From: a virus | DNA: 64,000 nucleotides | Reading direction: 5' to 3' (one strand) | UHGV virus genome: UHGV-0131811 | Shown here: piece after piece, positions 12,005-63,982 of the stretch | Numbering within the stretch: position 1 is the stretch's first letter | Layout: the number at the start of each line of letters is the position of its first letter | Translations under genes and position numbers: made by a program | Notes under the pieces: generated by a model | The model's database searches: none | What the model saw: only the letters and a program-made list of their open reading frames with translations | Told to the model about the DNA's origin: nothing

Positions 12005-12340
12005 CACCAACATCACTTAAGAGTCTTCTAAGAGGGTTTTTAAGTAATGTGATGTTTGGTTTGGTGTGGTCAGGTAATGTGATGTCTGGTTTAGTGCGGT
12101 GATGTGCGGTCCGGTAAGGTCCGGTGCGGTAAAGTGCGGGTAGTTAGTCTCAGCTACATTAAAATGAGACTTACCTTTTTAAAAGGTCTTTAAGAGGGTC
12201 TTTTAATAAGGTGCTGTATGGTAAGGTGATGTCTGGTGTGGTAGGGTGAGGTTAAGTGAGGTGAGGTATGGGTGGATGGTAGTAGCCACGTTAAAAATCT
12301 ACCAAGTTTCTAAAGAGTCTTCTGTTGAGGGTTCTTTACA
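12005..12340 (+). repeat. GT-rich repeat block A (two units of conserved box + GT-rich hexamer run + hairpin box)
   Basis: Boxes CTTAAGAGTCTTCTAAGAGGGTTTTTAAG and AAAGGTCTTTAAGAGGGTCTTTTAATAAGGT each followed by ~70 nt of GGTNNG-type repeats, then GGGTAGTTAGTCTCAGCTACATTAAAAT / GGATGGTAGTAGCCACGTTAAAAATCTACC. No ORF of 60 aa or more. Confidence 0.6.
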
Positions 12341-12361
12341 AACAACTTAACAATCAACTAA

Positions 12362-12967
<606 letters not shown>

Positions 12968-12969
12968 TT

Positions 12970-13410
12970 ATGAATACAAAAGCATTAGCAGCAAAGTTTA
13001 GTTACGGTGACACTGTATCACACTCTGAGATGGATACCTTCTTAGGTATTGTGAAGCCAACTTATCAAGGTGACATTGTTAAGTACGAAGATGAAATGAA
13101 GGCTTATGCGCTTACACGTCTAAACCGACTTGAGAAATTTATTGAGAAGCTTCTTAAAGAAGAGAAGATTTATCTGGTTGCTTCAATGGGTGTTGGTTAT
13201 CGTGTGGTTGAGCCTAAACATCAAGCAACTATTGCAAAACGCAAAATGTCTGGTAAGATTGGTCGAGCTTTAAAGCAAGCCACTCAAGCAATTGAGAATG
13301 TGAACACTATGGCACTTAGCCATCAAGAACGTTCACGACTGATTGAACAGCAAAACCATTTAGCTGCTATGAAAGCTAACATTAACAAGCAACGCAGAAA
13401 ACCTTTCTAA
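12970..13410 (+). CDS. Hypothetical protein (second gene of repeat-flanked cassette)
   Basis: 146 aa, starts 3 nt after upstream stop; basic C-terminus. Confidence 0.5.
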   Translation: MNTKALAAKFSYGDTVSHSEMDTFLGIVKPTYQGDIVKYEDEMKAYALTRLNRLEKFIEKLLKEEKIYLVASMGVGYRVVEPKHQATIAKRKMSGKIGRALKQATQAIENVNTMALSHQERSRLIEQQNHLAAMKANINKQRRKPF

Positions 13411-13421
13411 GTTGACTAGGT

Positions 13422-13445
13422 AGCCTCTTCGGAGGCTCCTTTTTA
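13422..13445 (+). terminator. Rho-independent terminator-like hairpin
   Basis: AGCCTCTTCGGAGGCT followed by CCTTTTT immediately after stop of 12970..13410. Confidence 0.55.
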
Positions 13446-13735
13446 AAAGGTCTTTAAAGAGGGTCTTTTAATAAGGTAAGGCACGGTTATGTCAGGTATG
13501 GTACGGTACGGTTAGGTAAGGTGAGGCGGAGTAAGGTATGGGTAGTTAATCGGAGCTACATTAAAATTCGATTACATCACTTAAGAGTCTTTTAAGAGGG
13601 TTTTTAAGTGAGGTGTGGCACGGTAATGTTAGGTAGGGTCAGGTCAGGTCAGGTGAGGTAAGGTAAGGTGATGTATGGAAGGATGGCAGTAGCCTTATAA
13701 AAAATCTGCCAAATAAGCTATAAAATCTGTTGACA
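13437..13735 (+). repeat. GT-rich repeat block B (paralogue of block A)
   Basis: Same box order as 12005-12340, including (GGTCAG)3-GGTGAGGTAAGGTAAGG at 13640-13670; ends in TTGACA...TATTTT promoter-like sequence before 13803 gene. Confidence 0.6.
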
Positions 13736-13802
13736 AGTCAGGTGTTATAGCTTATTTTTATACTCAATGTAATACAAAATTTAATATAACTTTGAGGTCA
13801 TT

Positions 13803-16386: not shown

Positions 16387-17286
16387 ATGTCACAAGCAGA
16401 TACAAGTTACAAAAATATCCTGAACCATGTTTTATCCGTTGGTGAACTGCGTACTACACGAACTGGAGATGTTATCTCTGCTTTTGCTCCACCTCAGTTT
16501 CGTTTTGATATGAGGACTGGTTTCCCGCTCTTAACATCTAAACAGGTGTTTACACGGCAAGTTATTGGGGAGGCTTTATGGTTCCTGAATGGTGAGAATA
16601 AGCTGGGTGAACTTCGTTACCGTACTTGGGATGAAAATGACGGAGAACGCTGGACTATCTGGTCAGATGATTTTAAACGCTGGTTAAGTTCTAATTATTC
16701 TTCTGAACAAGATTGGTTAGAAGATGCAGGTGGGAGAATCTATGGGGTTCAGTGGAGAAACTTTGAAGGTCATAATGGTTGTGTTGTAGACCAGCTAGAG
16801 ACCTTAGTAACGAAGATGAAGGGTGATATCACAGACCGTTACATGCTTGTTAATGCTTGGAATGCAGCAGATATTGCAGCAAACTCAATGGCTTTAGCAC
16901 CTTGTCATGTTCTGTTTCAGATTTATATCACTAATGAGGGTGAAGTTGACTTACAGTGGTATCAACGTTCAGTAGACACCTTTTTAGGACTTCCGTTTAA
17001 TATTGCGTCTTATGGTTTCATCTTAGAAGTTCTTTGTAAGATGACTGGATACACTCCACGGTACTTGATAGGTGTCTTTGGGGATACCCAGATTTATCAG
17101 AACCATATGAAGCAGGTTTATGAACTGATGAACAATGAAGAGTTCCATGCACCTACTTTTGAGATTGGTGTACCACTTAACACACTAAGTGACCTAAAAC
17201 ACCTTACTGCAAGTGATTTTATTGGTGGCATTTACAACTACCAACATGCAGGAAAGATTGAAGCACCTCTGTCAGTAGGTAAGTAA
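16387..17286 (+). CDS. thyA: Thymidylate synthase
   Basis: 299 aa; active-site LAPCHVLFQ (catalytic Cys in PCH) and conserved blocks throughout. Confidence 0.85.
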   Translation: MSQADTSYKNILNHVLSVGELRTTRTGDVISAFAPPQFRFDMRTGFPLLTSKQVFTRQVIGEALWFLNGENKLGELRYRTWDENDGERWTIWSDDFKRWLSSNYSSEQDWLEDAGGRIYGVQWRNFEGHNGCVVDQLETLVTKMKGDITDRYMLVNAWNAADIAANSMALAPCHVLFQIYITNEGEVDLQWYQRSVDTFLGLPFNIASYGFILEVLCKMTGYTPRYLIGVFGDTQIYQNHMKQVYELMNNEEFHAPTFEIGVPLNTLSDLKHLTASDFIGGIYNYQHAGKIEAPLSVGK

Positions 17287-17296
17287 AAACAAAAAA

Positions 17297-17330
17297 GGCT
17301 CCTTTTTACGGGAGCCTTAAATTTTATTTT
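17297..17330. terminator. Bidirectional terminator between converging genes
   Basis: GGCTCCTTTTTACGGGAGCC hairpin flanked by A-run upstream and T-run downstream, between thyA (+) and 17324..17695 (-). Confidence 0.6.
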
Positions 17331-17695
17331 TCAGTATTCTTTGTGTTCTTTTCAGTAATAGCTTGCAAGGCTGATACTGATTGAGCCAGATTGTTCACAC
17401 TGTCAGAGAATTTATCAAGGGTTTTGGTAAGTTTTGCGTTTTCACCCTTAACATTCTCTAACTGAACTTTCTGGTTCTCCATCCCTAGCTGAATCAATCT
17501 CATGTCAGACTGTAAATCACGAATAGCTGAATAGTTACTTTTGGAATAATTATCTAGCTGCTGTAACTTTGTTGTGACAGACACTTCCTGCTTACCACTT
17601 GAGACTTGCATAGTGGTATACATCCCAATAACACTAAAAATACCAACTACAATTGCACCAATATTATTTTTAAAAGCTTCCTCTAGCCACTTCAT
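17324..17695 (-). CDS. Membrane-anchored coiled-coil protein
   Basis: 123 aa; hydrophobic N-terminal segment then heptad-like region. Confidence 0.4.
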   Translation of the reverse strand: MKWLEEAFKNNIGAIVVGIFSVIGMYTTMQVSSGKQEVSVTTKLQQLDNYSKSNYSAIRDLQSDMRLIQLGMENQKVQLENVKGENAKLTKTLDKFSDSVNNLAQSVSALQAITEKNTKNTEK

Positions 17696-17969: not shown

Positions 17970-20504
17970 TTAAGCAGTTCTTACCCAAGCCATTAACTTA
18001 TAGAACTGGTTAGTAACACTGAATGCTGAACCAGAACCAGTACCACCAGTGTTACCACTAACTGTGTGGCTGTGAGCACCAATACCAACAGTGTGGCTGT
18101 GGTTACCTGTTGTATTCGTTACACCAGACCAGTTTCTTGATGCGTTGAAGTTGACAGGGATACCATTAGTAAAGTGATTACCAGTATACCCTTTAGAACC
18201 TGCCTGACTACCGAGGTGGAATGCACCACTTGCTGTGTAGAAGCTGCTAGTGTCACTCCTGAAGTAACCAAATGAACCAGTAATCTCCATAGTACCTCTG
18301 TTGTGGTTATGGTTACCAGTTGTGCTAGAAGTCTTAGTACCATAATCAAATGATGAAGTGGTAGCAGAGAAACTGTGTGTATGTGAAGGTAAGTTACCAA
18401 CAGATAACGTTACAGAGTCTGAACCACCAGTTGTAGCAACATCTGAACCGTTTGCTGCTGCAATTCTAATAGTTCTACCAACACCATTATTCAGGTACGT
18501 CCAAGTTAACCCAGGAAGTGCTGTATTAGGGTTAACATTACTGTTAAACCACGTTACAATACCTACTGGATAGATTTTATTCAGGTCTGTAGAGTCACTA
18601 ATTGCTTCTGCAATCTTCTGGTCAGTTTCTGCTTTAGTGTATGCACCAATATCTGAAGGGGTTGGTTTTTGCAAACTTGTGTAGTATTTTGCAATTGTAC
18701 CCTTCACAATACCTTGTGGAGCATCATCAAATGTCTGTGGGACTTCAAACAACTGTACACTTGCATTACTAGAAGATTGAACCCTAGATACCGTAGAATT
18801 TTGGTAGCCTCCAACCTTACAGTAAATATCATAAGTGTCACCAGAAGTGTTAACGTAACCAATATCCGTGATGAGGGCATTATCTGCTGTTCTCCAAGCT
18901 ACAGCATTTAAATCCTTTGGATTATTATTTGATGTTCGTAAAACAATTTCACACTTGCCTGATTGGTATGGGTTATTCGCATTAAAACCAGCACCTCCAA
19001 AAACCTCAATAACTGCTGTAGATGTTGATTGTGGCATTACAACAGTAGCGATTTTAGCCCACTTTTCACCGTTTCCTAAATTAAAACTGGTGCTTCTGAT
19101 TCTCAGGTATCTGCTATCACTAGCACTTTGAGTAAAATATCTAGCATCTAAGTTAGAGAAATCTGAAGGTTGAACTTGACCAGTGATTGCTAAAGTTGCA
19201 TTCATTTCAAATACTGAACCAATGTTAAGCCCTTTACCTGTCTTGTAGTTATACAGGTTTAAGATATCACTGGCATCACCATTACCGATATACCACTTGC
19301 TGGTTCCATCAACAGCCTTCCCTCTAATAAATAATGACGATGCAGTTTTTGCTTTTAACGCAAGAGCTTCACCATCAGAGTTGATAACCTGTTGTGCAGA
19401 GAATGTGTTAGCAGCATTGGTTCTTGCAATTGTACTTAATGTGGCTGCCGGAATATATCTAGAATCAATATTAGTCCAATCCGAAGGTTGAACTTGACCA
19501 GTGATTCTGAAGTTCTGGTTGACTGAGATATAGCCATTATCAAGTCTGATATTTGAACCGTGTACATAGTTGTGTAGCAGCACAGAGGCTGTGTTATCCC
19601 CGTTCCCTACATACCACCTGTTAGTGTTCTGAGAGTCAACACCCTGAATGAATAGTGAGCTAGCTGTTGCATTTTTCAACCTTAAAGCAGCACTGTCACT
19701 AATGATAGTTAGATTTCTACTAAACGTGTTAGTGCCCGTGAAATTATTATTAGCAGCTAACTGTGCAAATCTCTGATTAGCAACTGTCTGAGTGAAATAT
19801 CTAGCATCTAAGTTAGAGAAATCTGAAGGTTGAACTTGACCAGTGATTGCTAAAGTTGCATTCATTTCAAATACTGAACCAATGTTAAGCCCTTTACCTG
19901 TCTTGTAGTTATACAGGTTTAAGATATCACTGGCATCACCATTACCGATATACCACTTGCTGGTTCCATCAACAGCCTTCCCTCTAATAAATAATGACGA
20001 TGCAGTTTTTGCTTTTAACGCAAGAGCTTCACCATCAGAGTTGATAACCTGTTGTGCAGAGAATGTGTTTGTGATAGCAAGTCTTGCGTATCTTGCATCA
20101 TTCTCTTCATTAGTCCTCATACCAAGCTCATTAGGACTTGGCTTATTCAGAGTATGATAAACAGTTGCTGACCTTGAAGCATCTGCAATAGTTAGTTTAA
20201 GACCATTTGCGTTAATTTTAAAAGTCTTTAAAATATCCCCAATAGTAATCTCAGAAGAGCCTGTAGGGTCAAATACAGACTTTCCACCGTAAAGTAACTT
20301 GACAATACCTAAATCCCCAGTCATAGTGCTTCCAGCAATCTGAACAAACCTTTCTAGTTTGAAGGAAGCTAAGAAGTCTTGATAGGTCATTCTACGGTCT
20401 TCATCACCCAACATTTCAGGTCTTTTCTTAACTCTGATGTGCAATAGGTCTTCTGAACGAATTGTGTCGATTGAGTTTAATTGACTCAATTTGTAATCTG
20501 CCAT
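17970..20504 (-). CDS. Tail fiber protein with three tandem ~110-aa repeats and C-terminal His-box region
   Basis: 844 aa; repeat NTFSAQQVINSDGEALALKAKTASSLFIRGKAVDGTSKWYIGNGD... occurs twice identically with a divergent copy between; C-terminus has HTHSFS / NHNHNRG / HSHTV His boxes and Gly-rich tail. Confidence 0.6.
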   Translation of the reverse strand: MADYKLSQLNSIDTIRSEDLLHIRVKKRPEMLGDEDRRMTYQDFLASFKLERFVQIAGSTMTGDLGIVKLLYGGKSVFDPTGSSEITIGDILKTFKINANGLKLTIADASRSATVYHTLNKPSPNELGMRTNEENDARYARLAITNTFSAQQVINSDGEALALKAKTASSLFIRGKAVDGTSKWYIGNGDASDILNLYNYKTGKGLNIGSVFEMNATLAITGQVQPSDFSNLDARYFTQTVANQRFAQLAANNNFTGTNTFSRNLTIISDSAALRLKNATASSLFIQGVDSQNTNRWYVGNGDNTASVLLHNYVHGSNIRLDNGYISVNQNFRITGQVQPSDWTNIDSRYIPAATLSTIARTNAANTFSAQQVINSDGEALALKAKTASSLFIRGKAVDGTSKWYIGNGDASDILNLYNYKTGKGLNIGSVFEMNATLAITGQVQPSDFSNLDARYFTQSASDSRYLRIRSTSFNLGNGEKWAKIATVVMPQSTSTAVIEVFGGAGFNANNPYQSGKCEIVLRTSNNNPKDLNAVAWRTADNALITDIGYVNTSGDTYDIYCKVGGYQNSTVSRVQSSSNASVQLFEVPQTFDDAPQGIVKGTIAKYYTSLQKPTPSDIGAYTKAETDQKIAEAISDSTDLNKIYPVGIVTWFNSNVNPNTALPGLTWTYLNNGVGRTIRIAAANGSDVATTGGSDSVTLSVGNLPSHTHSFSATTSSFDYGTKTSSTTGNHNHNRGTMEITGSFGYFRSDTSSFYTASGAFHLGSQAGSKGYTGNHFTNGIPVNFNASRNWSGVTNTTGNHSHTVGIGAHSHTVSGNTGGTGSGSAFSVTNQFYKLMAWVRTA
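19129..19409. repeat. 281-bp direct repeat copy 1 inside tail fiber gene
   Basis: Identical to 19789-20069 (660 bp offset) as far as I can read. Confidence 0.75.
19789..20069. repeat. 281-bp direct repeat copy 2 inside tail fiber gene
   Basis: Identical to 19129-19409. Confidence 0.75.
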
Positions 20505-20550: not shown

Positions 20551-21726
20551 TTAAGCTGTTCTCTGCCACACATACACTACAAAAGATGGCTGCTCAACAC
20601 TGAATGCTTGACCACCACCAACAGAACCAGTTGTCCCTGAGTGTGTATGCTCAGAGCTAGAAACAGTAACAGTGCCTGTATGACTGTGCGAACCAATATT
20701 AACAGTGTGGCTGTGAGCACCAATTGCGACAGTATGACTATGAGCACCAGATGATGCAGTTGTACCTGAGAAGCTATGGGTGTGAGCACCAGCTAAATCA
20801 GTATACATAGCATTACCAACACCAGCATCAGCAGATGCAGTAATAGCATTTGTGCCACCCCTATCATTACCCCTCATAGGAACTCTATGGTTGTGGTTAC
20901 CAGCATTACTTGTTGTGCCACTAAACGTGTGAGTGTGAGCACCAGCACTATTAGTCGTTTTTGTACCGTAATCAAAAGTTGATGTGCTTTTTGAACCATA
21001 ATCAAAACTAGAGATAGATACACTTGCAGAGTGTGTATGACCACCACCTGTTAGGTAGATAGAGTGAGTATGTGCTGGTAAATTATTATTTGTTAATGCT
21101 ACAGTCTGAGAACCAAACATTGAACCAACAGGTCTAGAATCTGTATCATAACCAACTAGTGCCCTACCTTTAGAAACTAACTCCCAAGTGCCACCACAAA
21201 GCAAGTAAGTGGATGGGTTAGCAGAGTTAACAGACAGATGAATAGTCCCCACTGGATATGATGCTTGGATAGCTTTGTATAAGTTATTCACTGCTCTCGC
21301 TGTAGCATACTTATCAGCATCTTCATTGTACAGATTAGATGTTGTCCAGTTCTGAACATTACTTAAACCAACCTGTGCTTTCGTTGTATTGTGTGGGTTA
21401 CTTTTGTCGTCAATATGTTGCTGAATTAAGTTATTCACTTCCTCTGACGACATAATTTGTAGATTTGCTCTTGCCTCAGCAACATTCACAATGTCTGACA
21501 AGTTATTAGCTGCAACTAATTGAAGAGAGTTAATAACATTATCAAGACCCACTTGTGATTTAGTTACACCATGAGGATTATTCCTCAGAGATGCGTGAGG
21601 TGCTAACAACTGCTCAAGCGTACATCTTTTATCCTCAACACCTTGCTTAAGGTGGAAGATATCACTCAAATCAATTGGTAAGGCCGCTTGTGGCAAGGCA
21701 CTAATTTGAATTTCACCTACTGCCAT
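20551..21726 (-). CDS. Tail fiber protein (His-box type)
   Basis: 391 aa; C-terminal half has repeated GxHxH boxes (AHTHSIYLTGGGHTHS, AHTHTFSG, NHNHR, AHTHSFSG, AHSHTV, SHSHTG) like the tail fiber repeat family. Confidence 0.6.
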   Translation of the reverse strand: MAVGEIQISALPQAALPIDLSDIFHLKQGVEDKRCTLEQLLAPHASLRNNPHGVTKSQVGLDNVINSLQLVAANNLSDIVNVAEARANLQIMSSEEVNNLIQQHIDDKSNPHNTTKAQVGLSNVQNWTTSNLYNEDADKYATARAVNNLYKAIQASYPVGTIHLSVNSANPSTYLLCGGTWELVSKGRALVGYDTDSRPVGSMFGSQTVALTNNNLPAHTHSIYLTGGGHTHSASVSISSFDYGSKSTSTFDYGTKTTNSAGAHTHTFSGTTSNAGNHNHRVPMRGNDRGGTNAITASADAGVGNAMYTDLAGAHTHSFSGTTASSGAHSHTVAIGAHSHTVNIGSHSHTGTVTVSSSEHTHSGTTGSVGGGQAFSVEQPSFVVYVWQRTA

Positions 21727-41443: not shown

Positions 41444-41519
41444 TGGAGAATCCGAAGGGACTCGAACCCTTATAAACCTGTTTTGCAGACAGGCACATAG
41501 CCGTTTCTGTCACGGATTC
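41444..41519 (-). tRNA. tRNA-Cys (GCA)
   Basis: Hand-folded: acceptor GAATCCG/CGGATTC, anticodon loop CTGCAAA, T-loop TTCGAGT, encoded CCA. Confidence 0.7.
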
Positions 41520-41524
41520 AAATT

Positions 41525-41616
41525 GGAGGAAGATACCAGACTTGAACTGGTACACCGATTTCTCAGCTACTGGCAGTTTAGCAAACTGCTCCCTTACCTT
41601 TTAGGGTTAATCTTCC
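41525..41616 (-). tRNA. tRNA-Ser (GCU), class II
   Basis: Acceptor GGAAGAT/ATCTTCC, anticodon loop TTGCTAA, long variable arm, T-loop TTCAAGT, CCA. Confidence 0.7.
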
Positions 41617-41618
41617 AT

Positions 41619-42416
41619 TTATTTCTGTAATGCGTTCTTCATTTCTGGTGTTGCAATAGTGTCAATTACACCAGTTTTACAAGCATCATCAAACCAGTCT
41701 GGTAAGATACCTGCTAAGAACCCATTGATATTCGTTTTAAGGTACTCTGCAATAAGAGCAGCTTCTTCTTCAATCATCTGCACAACTTCATCTGCATAAG
41801 CTGTAATTTTTGAAATACCTTCATTAATCTTACTAACAGCTTGCTCAGCTAAATCAGAAATAGTATCAAGACCTTTGTCAATAGCATCTTGTAAGTCACT
41901 TAACACACCATTAACACTATCTAGTGCACTGTTAATCGTATCAATAGTTTTTTGACCATACTCTGTAGCAACACCCATAATACCACTAAATGGTGTACAG
42001 CCAACTTGTTCACCTGCTGCACCCATAACATTAGAGTAACCTTTTGCTACCTGCATACGTGATGAAAACTCATCAATGGACTTTTGACCGTAATCTGTTA
42101 GTGTTTTGGTAGTTGATGTAGTGCTTGTCAGACTCGTGGTAAAGCTGTTAAGCAGAACTGTTGTAAGTCCAGCAGCAACAAGCTTATCCTTTACTGTAGG
42201 GTCTGATACAGAGCTAATAGAGCTTACAAGTGATGTAGAGGCAGCTACGGTTCCACCGAGAACTGCTGCACCAGTAATAAGGGGGTTAGAAAACCCTTTA
42301 CCGGTTTTTAAGAGATTGAAAATCTCCTTACCTTGTTCTGTCATCTCTTTCATTAAGCACCTTTGAAATTGGTAGTCCAGTGGGATTTGAACCCTCTTCT
42401 CATGTTTTTCAGACAC
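41619..42416 (-). CDS. Hypothetical Ser/Thr-rich protein embedded in tRNA array
   Basis: 265 aa with low-complexity S/T-rich middle and helical C-terminus; same strand as tRNAs. Confidence 0.45.
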   Translation of the reverse strand: MSEKHEKRVQIPLDYQFQRCLMKEMTEQGKEIFNLLKTGKGFSNPLITGAAVLGGTVAASTSLVSSISSVSDPTVKDKLVAAGLTTVLLNSFTTSLTSTTSTTKTLTDYGQKSIDEFSSRMQVAKGYSNVMGAAGEQVGCTPFSGIMGVATEYGQKTIDTINSALDSVNGVLSDLQDAIDKGLDTISDLAEQAVSKINEGISKITAYADEVVQMIEEEAALIAEYLKTNINGFLAGILPDWFDDACKTGVIDTIATPEMKNALQK

Positions 42417-42445
42417 GCGCTTTAACCATATAAGCTACTTGGACT
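42369..42445 (-). tRNA. tRNA, probably Phe (GAA)
   Basis: T-loop TTCAAAT; anticodon loop CTGAAAA on CGTGT/ACATG stem; acceptor register and 3' end slightly ambiguous. Confidence 0.55.
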
Positions 42446-42450
42446 ATAAA

Positions 42451-42526
42451 TTGGGGTGACCTACGGGATTTGAACCCGTATAGACCATGTTCACAGCATG
42501 GGTCATTACCATTTATGATAAGGCCA
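42451..42526 (-). tRNA. tRNA-His (GUG)
   Basis: Acceptor GTGGCCT/AGGTCAC, anticodon loop CTGTGAA, T-loop TTCAAAT, CCA. Confidence 0.65.
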
Positions 42527-42557
42527 CATTTAAGGACTCTCGTAAGAATCCTTAGAA

Positions 42558-42633
42558 GTGGCAGCGGCATAAGGATTTGAACCTTAATAGGACAGCTTCA
42601 GAGACTGCTGCATTGCCAGTTATGCTATACCGC
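42558..42633 (-). tRNA. tRNA-Gln (CUG)
   Basis: Acceptor AGCGGTA/TGCCGCT, D-arm GCAT/ATGC, anticodon loop CTCTGAA, T-loop TTCAAAT, CCA. Confidence 0.55.
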
Positions 42634-42638
42634 TAAAT

Positions 42639-42717
42639 TTGGTACTCCATATCGGATTCGAACCGATACATAACACAGATTTTAAGTCTGGCCTCTCTGC
42701 CAATTGGAGTAATGGAG
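42639..42717 (-). tRNA. tRNA with anticodon UAA (Leu-type) but class I (short variable arm) architecture
   Basis: T-arm ATCGG-TTCGAAT-CCGAT, D-loop AATTGGCAG, anticodon loop CTTAAAA, discriminator A, CCA; variable region ~7 nt. Confidence 0.5.
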
Positions 42718-42719
42718 CA

Positions 42720-42795
42720 TTGGCGGGGGATGTTGGAATTGAACCAACTTCTTCGATTTCAAAGACCGAGGTTTTAACCTTGTAAACTAATCCCC
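42720..42795 (-). tRNA. tRNA-Gln (UUG)
   Basis: T-arm GTTGG-TTCAATT-CCAAC, anticodon loop CTTTGAA; 5' end uncertain by 1 nt. Confidence 0.55.
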
Positions 42796-42804
42796 TTTAA
42801 ATCT

Positions 42805-43362
42805 TTACTTTCTCAGTGGATGAATAAAGAATGCCAACATAACTCTTTCCCTTGAGAATGCTCTTTCTTCTGGGACAACACTTTTAAGTTTCCATCCAAC
42901 ATAAATTCTCCAGTAAAACTGTTTACCGAAGACTTTAATTGATGGGATAAAAGCGAATAATCCCCAAGCATTACTGTTCCACATTAGGAGATAACCAGTC
43001 TGATTATCTTCAGGGTTAGAACTTACGTTGATATTACCTTTCCACTTAGTAACATCTCTTACATCTCTTCCTAATACATGGTAAGAGAAGTTATAAGCTT
43101 TGTTTCTCCAGAGCCATCCGACTCTTTGCATGTAGACACCTAGTTTACCAATCCATCTAATATTAGCCCATCTTTTAACGTGACCTTCATCACCATCAAT
43201 TGGGTTGTCATATGTCTCCATCCATCTGAACCCGAAAGGTAAGTGTCCTTTCTTCTCACTGTAGAATGGAACTACAAAAGGTGCTAAGATAACTGCTAAG
43301 ATTGCTGCAAATGGCTCTAACAAAGCTAAGAAAATCCATGAAGCATACTTTAAGTATCTCAT
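42805..43362 (-). CDS. Hypothetical membrane-associated protein inside tRNA array
   Basis: 185 aa; hydrophobic N-terminal ~35 aa, Trp/Arg-rich remainder. Confidence 0.45.
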   Translation of the reverse strand: MRYLKYASWIFLALLEPFAAILAVILAPFVVPFYSEKKGHLPFGFRWMETYDNPIDGDEGHVKRWANIRWIGKLGVYMQRVGWLWRNKAYNFSYHVLGRDVRDVTKWKGNINVSSNPEDNQTGYLLMWNSNAWGLFAFIPSIKVFGKQFYWRIYVGWKLKSVVPEERAFSRERVMLAFFIHPLRK

Positions 43363-43601
43363 TGTCTAATCCTCGTAAGGAGGTAAATGTTATTATTCGT
43401 TTCTAAACCTTCTGGTAAAACTGTCTCAAAAATAACACTCTTCAGATGTCTACCACCAAAACAATCACGTATAAATCTTTCTACTCTAGCGGGGTCGCAT
43501 AAGTATCCCACTTTTAAGAAAATGTGGTGTTCAACACCAATGACCCTGACAAACTCAATACTCTCACAGTTTTCATGTTCAACTACTGTTAATGTTTGCA
43601 T
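43359..43601 (-). CDS. Hypothetical protein inside tRNA array
   Basis: 80 aa; stop overlaps start of 42805..43362. Confidence 0.4.
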   Translation of the reverse strand: MQTLTVVEHENCESIEFVRVIGVEHHIFLKVGYLCDPARVERFIRDCFGGRHLKSVIFETVLPEGLETNNNIYLLTRIRQ

Positions 43602-43618
43602 AGTATCACCTTTTTATC

Positions 43619-43694
43619 TGGCGCAGGATAAGGGATTCGAACCCCTATTAACAGCTTCGTAGACTGTTGCTCTTTCCATTTGAACTAATCCTGC
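43619..43694 (-). tRNA. tRNA-Arg (ACG)
   Basis: Acceptor GCAGGAT/ATCCTGC, anticodon loop CTACGAA, T-arm AGGGG-TTCGAAT-CCCTT, CCA. Confidence 0.7.
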
Positions 43695-43699
43695 AAAAT

Positions 43700-43777
43700 T
43701 GGTGTTCCAAGACGGATTCGAACCGTCACTAATACAAGGTTTGAGCTTGCATCCTCTGCCAATTGGGATACTGGAAC
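43700..43777 (-). tRNA. tRNA with anticodon CAA (Leu-type) but class I architecture
   Basis: Acceptor GTTCCAG/TTGGAAC, D-loop AATTGGCAG, anticodon arm GCAAG-CTCAAAC-CTTGT, T-arm GACGG-TTCGAAT-CCGTC, discriminator A, CCA. Confidence 0.5.
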
Positions 43778-43778
43778 A

Positions 43779-43853
43779 TGGTACTCACTAAAGGACTTGA
43801 ACCTTTTTCTTCATCTTGTAAGGGTGATGTTTTACCATATAAACTAAGCGAGT
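43779..43853 (-). tRNA. tRNA, anticodon arm ambiguous (possibly Val UAC)
   Basis: Acceptor ACTCGCT/AGTGAGT, T-arm AAAGG-TTCAAGT-CCTTT, CCA; anticodon stem has a mismatch or enlarged loop. Confidence 0.45.
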
Positions 43854-43949
43854 ATGAAAGAGGTCTGAAGTTGTGCCGCTAACTCAACTCCGTGGTATTT
43901 GTTACGGTCTTCAGTTGACTCAAAGCGGTCTTTCACTTGACCTCTGAAT

Positions 43950-44026
43950 TGGTGCTGCTCACAGGACTCGAACCTGCATTTCCATCCTTACAAGGGATGT
44001 GTAATAGCCAATTATACGAAAGCAGC
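43950..44026 (-). tRNA. tRNA-Thr (UGU)
   Basis: Acceptor GCTGCTT/GAGCAGC, anticodon arm CATCC-CTTGTAA-GGATG, T-loop TTCGAGT, CCA. Confidence 0.7.
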
Positions 44027-44032
44027 ATTGTT

Positions 44033-44107
44033 TGGAGCATCCAGAGGGAATCGAACCCTCAACCTCAGTTTGGAAGACTGTAATTTTCCCGTTTAAACTA
44101 TGGATGC
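44033..44107 (-). tRNA. tRNA-Gly (UCC)
   Basis: Acceptor GCATCCA/TGGATGC, anticodon loop CTTCCAA, T-arm GAGGG-TTCGATT-CCCTC, CCA. Confidence 0.65.
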
Positions 44108-44113
44108 ACTAAT

Positions 44114-44189
44114 TGGTGGAGAAGCAGGGAATTGAACCCTGTACTTAAGTTTGCAAAACTTATGTTTTAACCATGTAAACTACATCCCC
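44114..44189 (-). tRNA. tRNA-Ala (UGC)
   Basis: Anticodon arm TAAGT-TTTGCAA-ACTTA, T-arm CAGGG-TTCAATT-CCCTG, CCA; acceptor has one mismatch. Confidence 0.6.
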
Positions 44190-44195
44190 AATGTT

Positions 44196-44271
44196 TGGTA
44201 CAGGTGGAGGGAATTGAACCCATCGTCTTACTGATTAAGAGTCAGCCGCATAACCATTCTGCTACACCTGC
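44196..44271 (-). tRNA. tRNA-Lys (CUU)
   Basis: Acceptor GCAGGTG/CACCTGT, anticodon loop CTCTTAA, T-loop TTCAATT, CCA. Confidence 0.6.
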
Positions 44272-44278
44272 ATTAATT

Positions 44279-44355
44279 TGGTACACCTAGAGAGATTCGA
44301 ACTCACACTGAGCAGATTCTAAGTCTGCTGCCTCTACCAGTTGGGCTATAGGTGC
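44279..44355 (-). tRNA. tRNA with anticodon UAG (Leu-type) but class I architecture
   Basis: Acceptor GCACCTA/TAGGTGT, D-arm GCCC-AACTGGTAG-AGGC, anticodon arm GCAGA-CTTAGAA-TCTGC, 5-nt variable loop, T-loop TTCGAAT, discriminator A, CCA. Confidence 0.55.
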
Positions 44356-44613
44356 ATTAAATCTTTTTAGAGAACTTCTAAGAACCTGAGCAACAAGGTT
44401 CCACAACAAGCGACTAATAACCTTAGAAGCCCTCTAAAAAGACCTAAATAGGTCTTTGCATAGTCTTGTTTAATCCGGTGACTAGAACCTTTGGAGAGCT
44501 TGATATTATCTCTTCTCCGTGACACCTACTAGGTGTTTTATCAGTGTGTACGACAATACACGAGGGATACCAAAGCAACATCCGAATGAAGCTTGGCTTT
44601 AAATCTTATTAGG

Positions 44614-44701
44614 CGGTAAGTAAAGGAGTCGAACCCTCACCGTATCTCTACAGTGGCAACTGTTTTCAAGACAGTTTGGCTACCATTAGCCGCTACCTAC
44701 C
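44614..44701 (-). tRNA. tRNA-Ser (UGA), class II
   Basis: Acceptor GGTAGGT/ACTTACC, anticodon arm ACTGT-CTTGAAA-ACAGT, long variable arm, T-loop TTCGACT; CCA not encoded. Confidence 0.65.
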
Positions 44702-44714
44702 CCTAATAAGACTT

Positions 44715-44797
44715 TGGCATGGGACGGAGGAGTTGAACCCCTTTGAAACGGTGTTGGAAGCCGTTGCTCATGCCTTAGAGTCTTAACATCGTCCCAT
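44715..44797 (-). tRNA. tRNA-like gene, atypical (83 nt); anticodon undetermined
   Basis: Acceptor ATGGGAC/GTCCCAT (8 bp possible), T-loop TTCAACT, CCA; D region about 7 nt too long and anticodon arm cannot be placed unambiguously. Confidence 0.4.
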
Positions 44798-44934
44798 ACT
44801 ATAATTCGAAGCTTACCGTATTATCTCAACACTGTAAAGCCCCTTCTCAGATTATTTACATGTTCTGGAAAACATGAGATACAGACCACCTCCCTACAGG
44901 AAGACCCGCTAAGGTCGTCTAAGTAATCTGCTAA

Positions 44935-45282
44935 CTAATATTTTGCATGTCTTACCCTATGGCAATTTGAACATAGCAAAACACATTTGTCAAGTTCATC
45001 TTTTAGTTCTTGAGAGAACTTAAGGCTTTTCCTATGACCAATGTTAAAATCTTTATCTGAAGGATTCAAATGATGGAAGTCATACACTGCTGGATGATAC
45101 TTCTTACCACAATCATGACAAACCCCACCTTTGTACTCAATAGCTAAGAGTTTAAGTGCTCTTTGTCTTTCTATGGTTTGCTCATTAACACACTTTTTAC
45201 AGTATGAATGAGTTCTCCTACCATCTTTCATGTAGAAATCATTTTCATCCTTGCTAAGTTTGCACCTAATACAAGTTTTCAT
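44935..45282 (-). CDS. HNH endonuclease inside tRNA array
   Basis: CIRCKL...CKKC and CHDCG...HHLNP...CSNCHRVRH (two zinc knuckles plus HNH core). Track N-terminal extension to 45333 overlaps the adjacent tRNA-like gene, so start trimmed to the internal Met. Confidence 0.65.
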   Translation of the reverse strand: MKTCIRCKLSKDENDFYMKDGRRTHSYCKKCVNEQTIERQRALKLLAIEYKGGVCHDCGKKYHPAVYDFHHLNPSDKDFNIGHRKSLKFSQELKDELDKCVLLCSNCHRVRHAKY

Positions 45283-45296
45283 GATTTCTCCAAAAT

Positions 45297-45378
45297 TGGT
45301 CGAGGCGGCAGGACTCGAACCCGCATACTCCACTTACTCGGTTAACGGCGGTTTAGAAGACCGCTGAGATACGCCCCG
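45297..45378 (-). tRNA. tRNA-like element with canonical acceptor/T-arm but atypical D/anticodon region
   Basis: Acceptor CGGGGCG/CGCCTCG, T-arm GCGGG-TTCGAGT-CCTGC, CCA; interior has hairpin GCGGT-CTTCTAA-ACCGC only 9 nt after the acceptor, so no standard cloverleaf; the hairpin carries the recurring GGTCTTCT spacer motif. Confidence 0.35.
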
Positions 45379-45626
45379 TAATTATCTTTAAAGACTCTCT
45401 TAGAAAGCCCTTAAAGATGCCCACCTTATTAATCATACCGTGGGCGAGTACGCCAAATTCTTTGATGAGGGATTGGAAGACCTCACTGGTGTTTAGCCTA
45501 TCAAGCTACTGCCAGAAAAACATTGTCGTTTGCATTTATTTTAAATTTGCAAAATAGACGCTACGCAACGAAAACTAAGGTTACTATAAAGTAGTCACAT
45601 CTCAATGTCAACAACTTTATTGAAAT

Positions 45627-45702
45627 TGGTACTGGTAGGTGGAATCGAACCACCGATGTTCCCTTATCAGGGGAGTGTTATAACCTTCTTAACTATACCA
45701 GC
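45627..45702 (-). tRNA. tRNA-Ile (GAU)
   Basis: Acceptor GCTGGTA/TACCAGT, anticodon loop CTGATAA, T-arm GGTGG-TTCGATT-CCACC, CCA. Confidence 0.65.
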
Positions 45703-45703
45703 T

Positions 45704-45780
45704 TGGAGGTTCAGATGGGAATCGAACCCACATTCATAGGGCTTATGAGACCCTTGCATTACCTTATCTGCGACTGAACC
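45704..45780 (-). tRNA. tRNA-Met (CAU)
   Basis: Acceptor GGTTCAG/CTGAACC, anticodon arm AGGGT-CTCATAA-GCCCT, T-loop TTCGATT, CCA. Confidence 0.65.
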
Positions 45781-45784
45781 ATAT

Positions 45785-45860
45785 TGGTAGAAGTGGAGGG
45801 ATTCGAACCCATCGCCTGTCAGATTAAAAGTCTGCCGCATCACCATTCTGCTACACTTCC
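45785..45860 (-). tRNA. tRNA-Lys (UUU)
   Basis: Acceptor GGAAGTG/CACTTCT, anticodon loop CTTTTAA, T-loop TTCGAAT, CCA. Confidence 0.65.
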
Positions 45861-46044
45861 ATTAAATTACCTTTGTAGATAAGCTACCCAGACTTGCTTA
45901 AGGTCTGTAGCGATGTGCCTTTTTGGGTTTAAATCTAGAATTTACCCATTCACCCTTTGTGGTCGCATACTCACAGGTAAGCTTAATAACTTATCTACAA
46001 AGATAATTACCAGACCGTTGTTTATCATCTTAAGTGCTACCATT

Positions 46045-59108: not shown

Positions 59109-59185
59109 TTTAGAATCTCCTAGTTTAAGGTTTTTATTTAGTAGGGAGGTCATCCCTCCCCGTTGATTAGTAATTTACTGCATGT
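59109..59185 (-). promoter_or_regulatory. Conserved 5' leader, class A (hairpin GGGGAGGGAT-GACC-TCCCTAC + TAAACTAGGAGATTCTAAA)
   Basis: Near-identical copies at 59439-59515, 60577-60655, 61801-61875, 62665-62745. Confidence 0.55.
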
Positions 59186-59438
59186 TGGCGTAGGTTGCAA
59201 GCCTTTTTTCGTTGTATTTTGTAAGAATCTCACAAGATAGAACATCGTACTTTGTAACCGCTTTGCTTTTGTCGAGGTCAAAAAAGCCAAATGCTTTACC
59301 ATCTTTGAATCCGACAACTTCGTAAGATTCTTTGATGATTTCACCATTGAACAAATCACTCTCTATACGGTGAAATAATGCTACGTCTTCCTTGTCGGTT
59401 GCGATTTGTAAGAGTGTGGTCAGTTCTACGTGTTCCAT
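59175..59438 (-). CDS. Hypothetical small protein
   Basis: 87 aa; ATG behind class A leader. Confidence 0.5.
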   Translation of the reverse strand: MEHVELTTLLQIATDKEDVALFHRIESDLFNGEIIKESYEVVGFKDGKAFGFFDLDKSKAVTKYDVLSCEILTKYNEKRLATYANMQ

Positions 59439-59515
59439 TTTGAATCTCCAGTTTAGGACTTTACTTAGTGGGGAAGGTTATTCCCTCCCCGTTGATTGAT
59501 AATTTACAGACTTTT
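59439..59515 (-). promoter_or_regulatory. Conserved 5' leader, class A
   Basis: AACGGGGAGGGAATAACCTTCCCCACTAAGTAAAGTCCTAAACTGGAGATTCAAAATG in sense. Confidence 0.55.
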
Positions 59516-60576: not shown

Positions 60577-60655
60577 TTTTAGAATCTCCAGTTTAGGACT
60601 TTATTTAGTGGGGAAGGTCATTCCCTCCCCGTTGATGTGTAATTTACAGACTTTT
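60577..60655 (-). promoter_or_regulatory. Conserved 5' leader, class A
   Basis: Hairpin GGGGAGGGAATGACCTTCCCC plus GGAGATTCTAAAAATG. Confidence 0.55.
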
Positions 60656-61509: not shown

Positions 61510-61602
61510 TTTGAATCTCCTAGTTTAAGGATTTAGTGGTAAAGCTCTTTATCTGGGGCTTACTTTATCGAACTATAAGCCCCTTGTAAAGTACTTTATC
61601 AG
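61510..61602 (-). promoter_or_regulatory. Conserved 5' leader, class B (hairpin AAGGGGCTTA...TAAGCCCC + AGATAAAGAGCTTTACCAC + TAAACTAGGAGATTC)
   Basis: Near-identical copies at 62307-62391 and 63605-63691. Confidence 0.55.
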
Positions 61603-61800
61603 TTAATTTTTGACAACTTTTAAAACTGCAAGATAACCTAAGCAATAAGAATCACCGAAGAGAGTTCTACCCATGAAAGAATCATCTTTGATATCCTTTG
61701 CAGTGACTGTTTTTTCTACGCCGTGGGAAAGAACTACATCACCAACTTTAATGTCTTTGATGTGCGTGGTTTCAATGGTTAAACCGTTGATAATAGCCAT
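61603..61800 (-). CDS. Hypothetical small protein
   Basis: 65 aa; ATG behind class A leader. Confidence 0.45.
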   Translation of the reverse strand: MAIINGLTIETTHIKDIKVGDVVLSHGVEKTVTAKDIKDDSFMGRTLFGDSYCLGYLAVLKVVKN

Positions 61801-61875
61801 TTTGAGTCTCCTAGTTTAAGGACTTTACTTAGTGGGGAGGGTCATTCCCTCCCCGTTGATGTGTAATTTAATCTA
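61801..61875 (-). promoter_or_regulatory. Conserved 5' leader, class A
   Basis: GGGGAGGGAATGACCCTCCCC hairpin plus GGAGACTCAAAATG. Confidence 0.55.
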
Positions 61876-61901
61876 TCTAAAAATCAGTGTCAATAAAATT
61901 T

Positions 61902-62306: not shown

Positions 62307-62391
62307 TTTAGAATCTCCAATTTAGGATTGAGTGGTAAAGCTCTTTATCTGGGGCTTACTGTACAGACTAATAAGCCCCCTGTAAAGTACT
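62307..62391 (-). promoter_or_regulatory. Conserved 5' leader, class B
   Basis: Shares TGGTAAAGCTCTTTATCTGGGGCTTA...TAAGCCCC with 61510-61602 and 63605-63691. Confidence 0.55.
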
Positions 62392-62664
62392 TTATACTAA
62401 ATGCAGTTTTTTACCTTTTACTATGATGTAACTTGATGTGCTATTGCTACATACATCCTGATAAATTCTGCGCAAACGTCCTTCATAGTATACTTTCCAG
62501 CTAGTTGGAATCTTTTTGCCGTATCCGGTAGCAGTTTTTTGGAGTCCTGCGACTTGCCAATCTAAGATATGTTGCTCAGCCTGTAAATCCTCAAAGTGCA
62601 TCACACCGTCTACATAGTGACGTAGAGTGACATTTAAAGTGCGACCGTTGTTAGTAGTATACAT
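62392..62664 (-). CDS. Hypothetical small protein
   Basis: Start trimmed to ATG at 62662-62664 behind RBS; track extension translates the class A leader. Confidence 0.5.
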   Translation of the reverse strand: MYTTNNGRTLNVTLRHYVDGVMHFEDLQAEQHILDWQVAGLQKTATGYGKKIPTSWKVYYEGRLRRIYQDVCSNSTSSYIIVKGKKLHLV

Positions 62665-63604: not shown

Positions 63605-63691
63605 TTTTGAATCTCCAGTTTAGGATTAGTGGTAAAGCTCTTTATCTGGGGCTTAAGGTATCAACTTTTAAGCCCCTTGTAAAGTACTTTA
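63605..63691 (-). promoter_or_regulatory. Conserved 5' leader, class B
   Basis: Same hairpin and spacer as 61510-61602. Confidence 0.55.
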
Positions 63692-63982
63692 TCAGTTAAT
63701 TTTCAGCTTTGCATGACTTCTCATTGTACGAATTGGAGATGTTAAGGCTACGCGTCTAATATATGCCTTTTTCGTGTATACATTTGTCTTTCCGATAGTG
63801 TTTACACATGTAAAAAGATTCATTGGTGAATTTTTTAACTTCAACTGTTTATCAGCCTTCACACCCCATCTTACAGCAGATTGTTTTCCGTTGTCAACCA
63901 CTTTCCCGCCTAACTTTTTCGCCATGATGCGAGCGTCATCACGAGTTTTTACAGGAATTACAACGTTTTTGATAGTAGCCAT
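63692..63982 (-). CDS. Hypothetical basic protein
   Basis: 96 aa; ATG behind TTGGAGATTCAAAA RBS at window end. Confidence 0.45.
   Translation of the reverse strand: MATIKNVVIPVKTRDDARIMAKKLGGKVVDNGKQSAVRWGVKADKQLKLKNSPMNLFTCVNTIGKTNVYTKKAYIRRVALTSPIRTMRSHAKLKIN

Follow-up and report, generated by a model that had tools for sequence, protein, structure and literature searches.

The closest described counterpart of the locus reported here is the long tail fiber (LTF) of the Felixounavirus phages, known as gp77 in Felix O1 and as gp27 in Bas63. The Bas63 LTF, 630 Å by cryo-EM, has a baseplate-binding domain followed by beta-helix repeat domains, which are separated by helix-and-turn linkers and are rod-like in the manner of T4 gp34; the fiber ends in a di-histidine needle and a head that resemble T4 gp37 (PMC12609058). 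The number of repeats is constant across the genus, yet repeats 2-5 are unexpectedly variable. This variation was ascribed to sequence divergence, with three hypotheses, and a transfer of modules between positions was not described (PMC12609058). The DNA analyzed here is a stretch of 64,000 nucleotides (nt) from UHGV virus genome UHGV-0131811, referred to below as the window. It belongs to the metagenome-assembled genome of a Felixounavirus (Felix O1-like myovirus), and it contains the same LTF gene in the same gene order and with the same architecture. The first of the three shaft modules of this gene was very probably replaced in the recent past by a copy of the third module through ectopic (non-allelic) gene conversion. 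The locus differs from the Bas63 account in that one module appears to be a fresh copy of another, and in that module types are found at different positions across phages.

Two other known systems are related to this observation. Short conserved motifs that flank the variable distal fiber segments of T-even phages are reportedly crossover points that generate mosaic fibers, as is said to have been set out in 1998 by Tetart, Desplats and Krisch in J Mol Biol 282:543, a paper that PMC2839356 cites. The likeness to the LTF gene lies in recombination that is anchored at motifs. In the T-even case the exchange is between phages, is located at His-box motifs and swaps the adhesin, whereas in the LTF it is between paralogous positions of one gene, is located at NTFS and ITGQVQPSD islands and affects the shaft; the LTF's own His-box region is not involved. 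The other system is concerted evolution by ectopic gene conversion in tandem-repeat genes, which is non-reciprocal, keeps the copy number constant, gives a tract bounded by homology and leaves the donor unchanged. The LTF event shares these four features. Unlike concerted evolution, conversion in the LTF is rare and the median identity between modules is 35% at the amino acid (aa) level (358 within-protein module pairs in 120 representative homologues); therefore, the LTF repeats are not homogenized overall. In the literature searched, nothing specific was found on gene conversion in tail fiber repeats or on His-box recombination. The mechanism is an ordinary one with no new element, and the present gene is a well-resolved example of it.

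The LTF gene and its three modules are located as follows. The modules were delimited with a hidden Markov model built from the modules themselves (the unit HMM).

17970-20504, minus strand: LTF gene, an open reading frame (ORF) of 844 aa, homologue of Felix O1 gp77, Bas63 gp27 and wV8 gp83.
19770-20099, minus strand: module 1, aa 136-245 (unit HMM domain 1), the probable recipient, now with module-3 sequence.
19440-19760, minus strand: module 2, aa 249-355 (unit HMM domain 2), diverged.
19110-19439, minus strand: module 3, aa 356-465 (unit HMM domain 3), the probable donor.
19797-19847, minus strand: conserved linker that encodes ITGQVQPSDFSNLDARY and closes module 1, with paralogous copies at 19455-19505 (module 2) and 19137-19187 (module 3).

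Each module is composed of a beta-sheet body and a conserved linker, ITGQVQPSD..N.D.RY, that follows it. The first-pass annotation, made from the DNA letters and their translations, had described three tandem repeats of ~110 aa in the 844-aa fiber, with a middle copy that had diverged. Both points were confirmed. The Pfam family PF20744 (gp37_trimer) matches the protein on three stretches (E 3e-57, 191 bits vs a curated cut-off of 21.7), the unit HMM gives three domains, and module 2 is 39% identical in aa to modules 1 and 3. The 330-nt module period was not reported by Tandem Repeats Finder because the modules are too diverged.

Modules 1 and 3 contain the longest direct repeat of the 64-kb window. 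A repeat search placed its two copies of 281 nt at 19129-19409 and 19789-20069, with a spacing of 660 nt. The annotation had reported two identical 281-bp segments, and the segments are present, but the identity is not perfect. The repeat tool rounds the value to 100%; when the copies are compared base by base, 280 of 281 nt agree, and the longest stretch without a mismatch is 275 nt (19135-19409 equals 19795-20069).

19129-19409, minus strand: repeat copy inside module 3, exact part 19135-19409 (repeat search and base comparison).
19794, minus strand: the sole mismatch between the copies, G (gene nt 711, C) vs A at 19134 (gene nt 1371, T); the base at 19794 is native to module 1 and sets the probable 3' end of the converted tract.

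The mismatch is synonymous, as it occurs in a Phe codon (TTC vs TTT). The two copies share the same codon phase and encode aa 146-239 and aa 366-459 of the LTF. Directly beyond both edges of the repeat the sequence identity is at background level. In five related phages modules 1 and 3 are alignable only across the final 24-67 nt, which is the conserved linker, and in the closest sibling the two module positions differ at 115 alignment columns; therefore, the repeat is not a product of chance. Identity of the copies driven by selection was also considered and was rejected, since the synonymous sites are identical as well.

The closest sibling provides an allele from before the event. In a protein search the window protein corresponds to P0001, which is encoded on an 89,177-nt ENA metagenome scaffold, scaffold_10 of assembly ERZ28650236 from sample SAMN06051249. 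Identical genes for P0002 (846 aa), a near-twin of P0001, are present in two other samples (L006 and L007, below the sibling gene). Alignment of the window gene with the sibling gene shows 126 differing columns, 115 of which fall within gene nt 449-708. The remaining 11 differences are found in ~2,260 nt, with one at nt 1206 and ten at nt 2098-2484, and there are none in gene nt 1-448, 650-707 and 709-1205. A similar contrast is seen in the protein P0274 of the P0002 cluster, which has 48 aa differences from the window protein within aa 149-237 and 1 elsewhere. Of the 19 members of the P0002 cluster, 14 are listed as full-length; each of these is 846 aa long and none has a module-3 body at position 1. 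Since the 846-aa form is carried by siblings from other samples and by all 14 of these cluster members, comparison of the alleles identifies it as the ancestral and widespread form. The protein length changes from 846 to 844 aa across the conversion. The divergence between window and sibling is ~0.5% in the gene outside the tract and ~1% over 6 kb flanks, with L006 and L007 as the only siblings behind the flank value. It follows from these low values that the conversion is younger than the small divergence between window and sibling.

The same comparison delimits the tract, which has a size of 260-275 nt.

19795-20069 at most (gene nt 436-710) and 19797-20056 at least (gene nt 449-708), minus strand: probable converted tract in module 1, from the comparison of window and sibling.
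20057-20069 (gene nt 436-448), minus strand: 5' junction block AACACATTCTCTG, 13 nt, coding NTFS and common to modules 1 and 3, with a second copy at 19397-19409.
Native module-1 sequence, as it stood before the probable conversion: GTQNIQGDANLL... and GGAACTCAAAATATTCAAGG...

On the 3' side, the sibling's module 1 is the same as its module 3 across 58 nt (gene nt 650-707), and the two differ at nt 708 and 711; over 67 nt the two modules are 97% identical. The linker at 19797-19847 lies within this shared block plus nt 708. Module 1 of the window has the module-3 base at nt 708 and the native base at nt 711, and the mismatch at nt 711 is the first unconverted site. The 3' end reads ...GATATTTCACT in module 1 of the window, ...GATACTTCACT in module 1 of the sibling and ...GATATTTTACT in module 3 of both.

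The relatives also indicate the direction of the transfer. Module 3 of the window is orthologous to the module 3 of other phages, with nt identities of 93.6-94% to D4, 91% to Ro111lw and 83% to Mushroom. It is the same as module 3 of the sibling except for one single nucleotide polymorphism at nt 1206, where D4 and Ro111lw carry the window base and the change is private to the sibling. Module 1 of the window is merely 55-61% identical in nt to module 1 of five relatives, and it matches its own module 3 at 275 of 275 nt, with 94% for the best foreign module 3. None of the phage records holds the module-1 sequence contiguously with its unique flanks above ~80% identity. No other protein among the 120 homologues listed has this module type in the first position, also when the threshold is lowered to 70% aa identity. 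The number of modules (three) and their spacing are unchanged between the window and the siblings.

A recent duplication or a gene conversion had both been offered as the origin of the repeat. The existence of a pre-conversion sibling, the unchanged donor, the unchanged module count and the position of the junctions in shared sequence all favor conversion over duplication, and the close relatives all have three modules with the same spacing. The recipient is replaced at a constant copy number, the donor is left as it was and the tract is bounded by shared sequence, which is the pattern that defines gene conversion at the sequence level. A recent ectopic gene conversion from module 3 to module 1 of the same gene is highly probable on this evidence. 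The event would have involved either a single genome or two sister genomes in the same cell, and it would have been non-reciprocal. Strand invasion or annealing may have occurred in the 58-nt block, followed by copying of module 3 and by resolution at the 13-nt microhomology, possibly by copy-choice or synthesis-dependent strand annealing. The tract begins in the 13-nt NTFS block and ends 1-3 nt past the 58-nt block. Since a complete structural module was exchanged for a paralogous one, the fiber is likely to have remained functional.

Several points weigh against conversion of module 1 or limit what can be said about it. The converted allele is known from one metagenome scaffold in assembled form, and P0001 forms a singleton cluster. 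A 39-nt probe over the 5' junction was not matched exactly in any of IMG/VR, the JGI metagenomes and the GTDB genomes. An intramolecular and an inter-genome origin (co-infection) both fit the sequence. The singleton allele on a metagenome scaffold and the lack of a probe match in the three other collections would also be expected from an assembly artifact, in which a short-read assembler or scaffolder sent module 1 through module-3 sequence while the real phage has a native module 1. The 58-nt block that is exact between modules 1 and 3 of the sibling is long enough for a graph branch. However, the 5' junction offers only 13 shared nt, which is below the usual k-mer length of assemblers; therefore, a graph mis-join cannot enter module 3 at this junction. 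The ORF is open with its frame intact, and the combination of a converted nt 708 and a native nt 711 is a site pattern typical of a recombinant. Independent assemblies contain similar partial tracts, of which one is found in two samples, and the scaffold itself is recorded under two samples. An artifact is improbable in view of these points.

Module 1 could also derive from an ordinary allelic exchange, if a second phage already had this module type in the first position; the match to module 3 of the same gene would in that case be secondary. In favor of this, the gene is a mosaic, and module types do occur at differing positions in different phages. No such donor was found in 228 phage records or 120 protein representatives, however, and the foreign module 3 that comes closest stays at 94% against the complete match of the phage's own, so this origin is very improbable. 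A recent tandem duplication by unequal crossing-over, which would have made an extra copy, has some precedent in wider-family relatives with 4 or 5 modules; modules 3 and 5 of one of them (P0121) are 61% identical, as if from an old duplication. The window does not differ in module number or spacing from the siblings or from at least 99 of 120 homologues, the sibling holds a diverged module at the same place, and a single unequal crossover would yield one or five modules and not three. The chance of such a duplication seems slighter still. A diversity-generating retroelement, in which a template repeat is copied into a variable repeat, bears a superficial resemblance to the locus only in that there are two near-identical repeats in a tail fiber gene. 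Both copies are coding shaft modules, and the one mismatch in 281 nt is a native base with no adenine-specific scatter. There is no reverse transcriptase among the genes within ~3 kb (baseplate, fiber, hypothetical, td and frd), and the rest of the window was not scanned for one. This explanation is extremely unlikely.

Events similar to the conversion of module 1 are seen elsewhere in the LTF family. The window pair has the highest identity of all within-protein module pairs at 100%, and the next two pairs are at 65%. In P0011 (L010), modules 1 and 3 share 173 nt at 92.5% identity (gene nt 550-722 vs 1216-1388). In P0106, which was found in two samples (L011 and L012), modules 2 and 3 share 153 nt at 98% identity (gene nt 897-1049 vs 1221-1373). 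Both tracts start at the conserved W.VG.G island and extend into the linker. On sequence grounds these two are independent partial conversions in metagenomic Felixounavirus-like LTF genes. Clustering of the module bodies at ≥90% aa identity gave 81 types, 4 of which span more than one position. These are the window case, a type in P0064, a type in P0116 with P0060, P0062 and P0115, and a type that occupies position 1 in two proteins and position 3 in five. The distribution of the types indicates that transfer between positions is recurrent but rare, and that the modules are otherwise kept different.

The LTF gene is also an ordinary inter-phage mosaic, as its ends are nearest to wV8, its module 2 is nearest to JN01 (89% nt identity) and its module 3 is nearest to D4. 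One tentative and rather doubtful extension is that the three islands of each module, NTF.., W.VG.G and ITGQVQPSD..N.D.RY, are built-in crossover points of a cassette system with which Felixounaviruses move beta-prism shaft modules between positions and between phages. Such a system might be kept by diversifying selection on the shaft, due to contact with host surface glycans or escape from a defense that recognizes the fiber. If this were true, it would explain the "unexpected" variability of LTF repeats 2-5 in Bas63 and its relatives. The linker DNA does not appear to be more conserved than ordinary conserved coding sequence, with an orthologous identity of 0.85-0.94 vs 0.93 for the N-terminus.

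The locus provides a dated and base-resolved case of fiber shaft remodeling, in which the "before" allele is widespread, the "after" allele has been seen once and the junctions are placed within a few bases. Transfer of modules between positions may be an added explanation for the repeat variability that was noted for Bas63 within the Felixounavirus LTF. For the engineering of Felix O1-type phages, the event suggests that exchange of whole modules is feasible at the NTFS and ITGQVQPSD boundaries.

The number of modules has a bearing on the length of the fiber. By motif count, at least 99 of 120 homologues have three modules, and nearly all the others have a normal length and variant motifs; this comparison of repeat number among related phages had been proposed in the first-pass annotation. 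P0041 (L009, 740 aa) has two modules: module 3 is missing, and the join lies in ITGQVQPSD. Its source is a SPAdes contig of low coverage (6.7), and the two-module form may have arisen by collapse during assembly. When 1.84 billion representatives were searched with a profile, P0122 (901 aa) was found to have four modules and P0121 (1015 aa) five, both with N- and C-termini of the LTF type. P0121 has no relative above 49% identity among sequenced phages. Remoter fibers in the same search had up to 15 weak module matches.

The repeat copies of the window are 660 nt apart, which corresponds to 220 codons, and recombination between the 275-nt copies would result in an in-frame loss or gain of 220 aa. 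The predicted variants in the phage population are a 624-aa fiber with one module and a 1064-aa fiber with five modules. The earlier proposal of a recombination hotspot that alters fiber length is reasonable in view of the 220-codon spacing and the relatives with 2, 4 and 5 modules, but it is an expectation, as neither a deleted nor an expanded form of the gene was observed for this phage. The change of specificity that had been suggested along with it is unsupported: conversion affected a module of the shaft, whereas receptor binding is a function of the needle and head at the C-terminus (PMC12609058).

The assignment of the gene to its family is based on homology and context. A total of 228 phage records match the LTF gene by DNA, and nearly all of them are Felix O1-like (Felixounavirus) and annotated as tail fiber protein. 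The protein search listed 120 homologues at 63-100% identity, mostly with 100% coverage. The N-terminal 405 nt of the gene are 88-100% identical to the relatives, and the protein ends in the invariant C-terminus ...MAWVRTA. The gene order is that of D4, JN01, Ro111lw, wV8 and Mushroom, with baseplate wedge genes, a 391-aa short tail fiber (STF), the LTF, two small genes, td (thymidylate synthase) and frd (dihydrofolate reductase, DHFR). By this evidence the window gene is a member of the Felixounavirus LTF family (Felix O1 gp77 and Bas63 gp27).

From the N- to the C-terminus the protein has a baseplate-binding part, the three shaft modules, another beta domain and a needle that is similar to T4 gp37 and includes a His-box region. 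The module body matches residues 368-436 of T7 gp17, the pyramid domain, with a phmmer E of 1.2e-6 and a profile E of 1.1e-7. The structures concerned are PDB 4A0T and 7BOZ. The C-terminus matches the tip of T4 gp37 (PDB 2XGF), and Gp10_C and gp37_C are weak Pfam matches. The AlphaFold2 (AF2) monomer model of the LTF is poor, with a mean pLDDT of 54 and a pTM of 0.30; its beta-rich module bodies have a pLDDT of 70-89, and there are short helices between them. In Foldseek this low-confidence monomer gave weak matches to 4A0T (E 2e-5) and to T4 gp34 (5NXH, E 4e-3), and the fold matches are used as weak support only. By sequence homology of the body and these weak fold matches, the module body is similar to the T7 gp17 pyramid or the T4 gp34 beta-prism domain. 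T7 gp17 is matched in one stretch, whereas the LTF here has three tandem copies with a conserved linker. Phages are reported to mix, match and duplicate such triangular beta-domains (PMC5537660). The interlocked homotrimer of these fiber domains, to which every chain contributes one sheet, is known from published work (PMC12609058, PMC5537660), and the model here is of a monomer only. The architecture found here agrees with the cryo-EM description of Bas63 (PMC12609058).

The short fiber gene (20551-21726) and the LTF gene have His-box (G.H.H) coding repeats in common in their C-terminal regions, with 60-78% nt identity between 18015-18112 and 20596-20955. The short fiber gene's C-terminal region also has a 27-nt period at 20678-20749. 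Genes 76 and 77 of Felix O1 share similar repeats (PMC3185647). Another homologue, P0061 (767 aa), has a C-terminal tail, HTHIVSLLPLHHLIMVLRQ..., that resembles an out-of-frame 93-aa ORF of the window (18119-18400, minus strand, ..HTVSLLPLHHLIMVLRLL..). Due to this resemblance, P0061 is probably a frameshifted or mis-sequenced LTF in the His-box region.

The window also has several features outside of the fiber genes. The regions 12017-12364 and 13411-13802 have no ORF of at least 50 aa and flank a two-gene block at 12365-13410. Each of them contains two copies of a ~96-nt repeat, in which a head such as TTAAGAGTCTTYTAAGAGGGTTTTTAAGT precedes a GGT-containing 5-nt unit (GGTGA, GGTCA or TAAGG) that is repeated to 7-11 copies. 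The arrays are located at ~12044-12130, 12207-12267, 13472-13526 and 13622-13675, and they have no Rfam match. A 78-nt repeat is present in four copies (59109-59186, 59438-59515, 60578-60655 and 61802-61879), each with the hairpin GGGGAAGG...CCCTCCCC followed by TTGAT. From its sequence it looks like a repeated terminator/promoter cassette. Another 78-nt repeat has three copies, at 61533-61610, 62329-62406 and 63626-63703. Its reverse complement appears to correspond to the 57-bp direct repeat that is found between early genes of Felix O1 (PMC3185647). The tRNA cluster of the window has 25 genes on the minus strand (41444-47018), and Felix O1 has 22 tRNA genes (PMC3185647). A hairpin at 17295-17318 has a terminator-like score on both strands with T-rich tails. 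It is located between the convergent thymidylate synthase gene (16387-17286, plus strand) and a 123-aa gene (17324-17695, minus strand), and in wV8 a terminator is annotated at the equivalent place.

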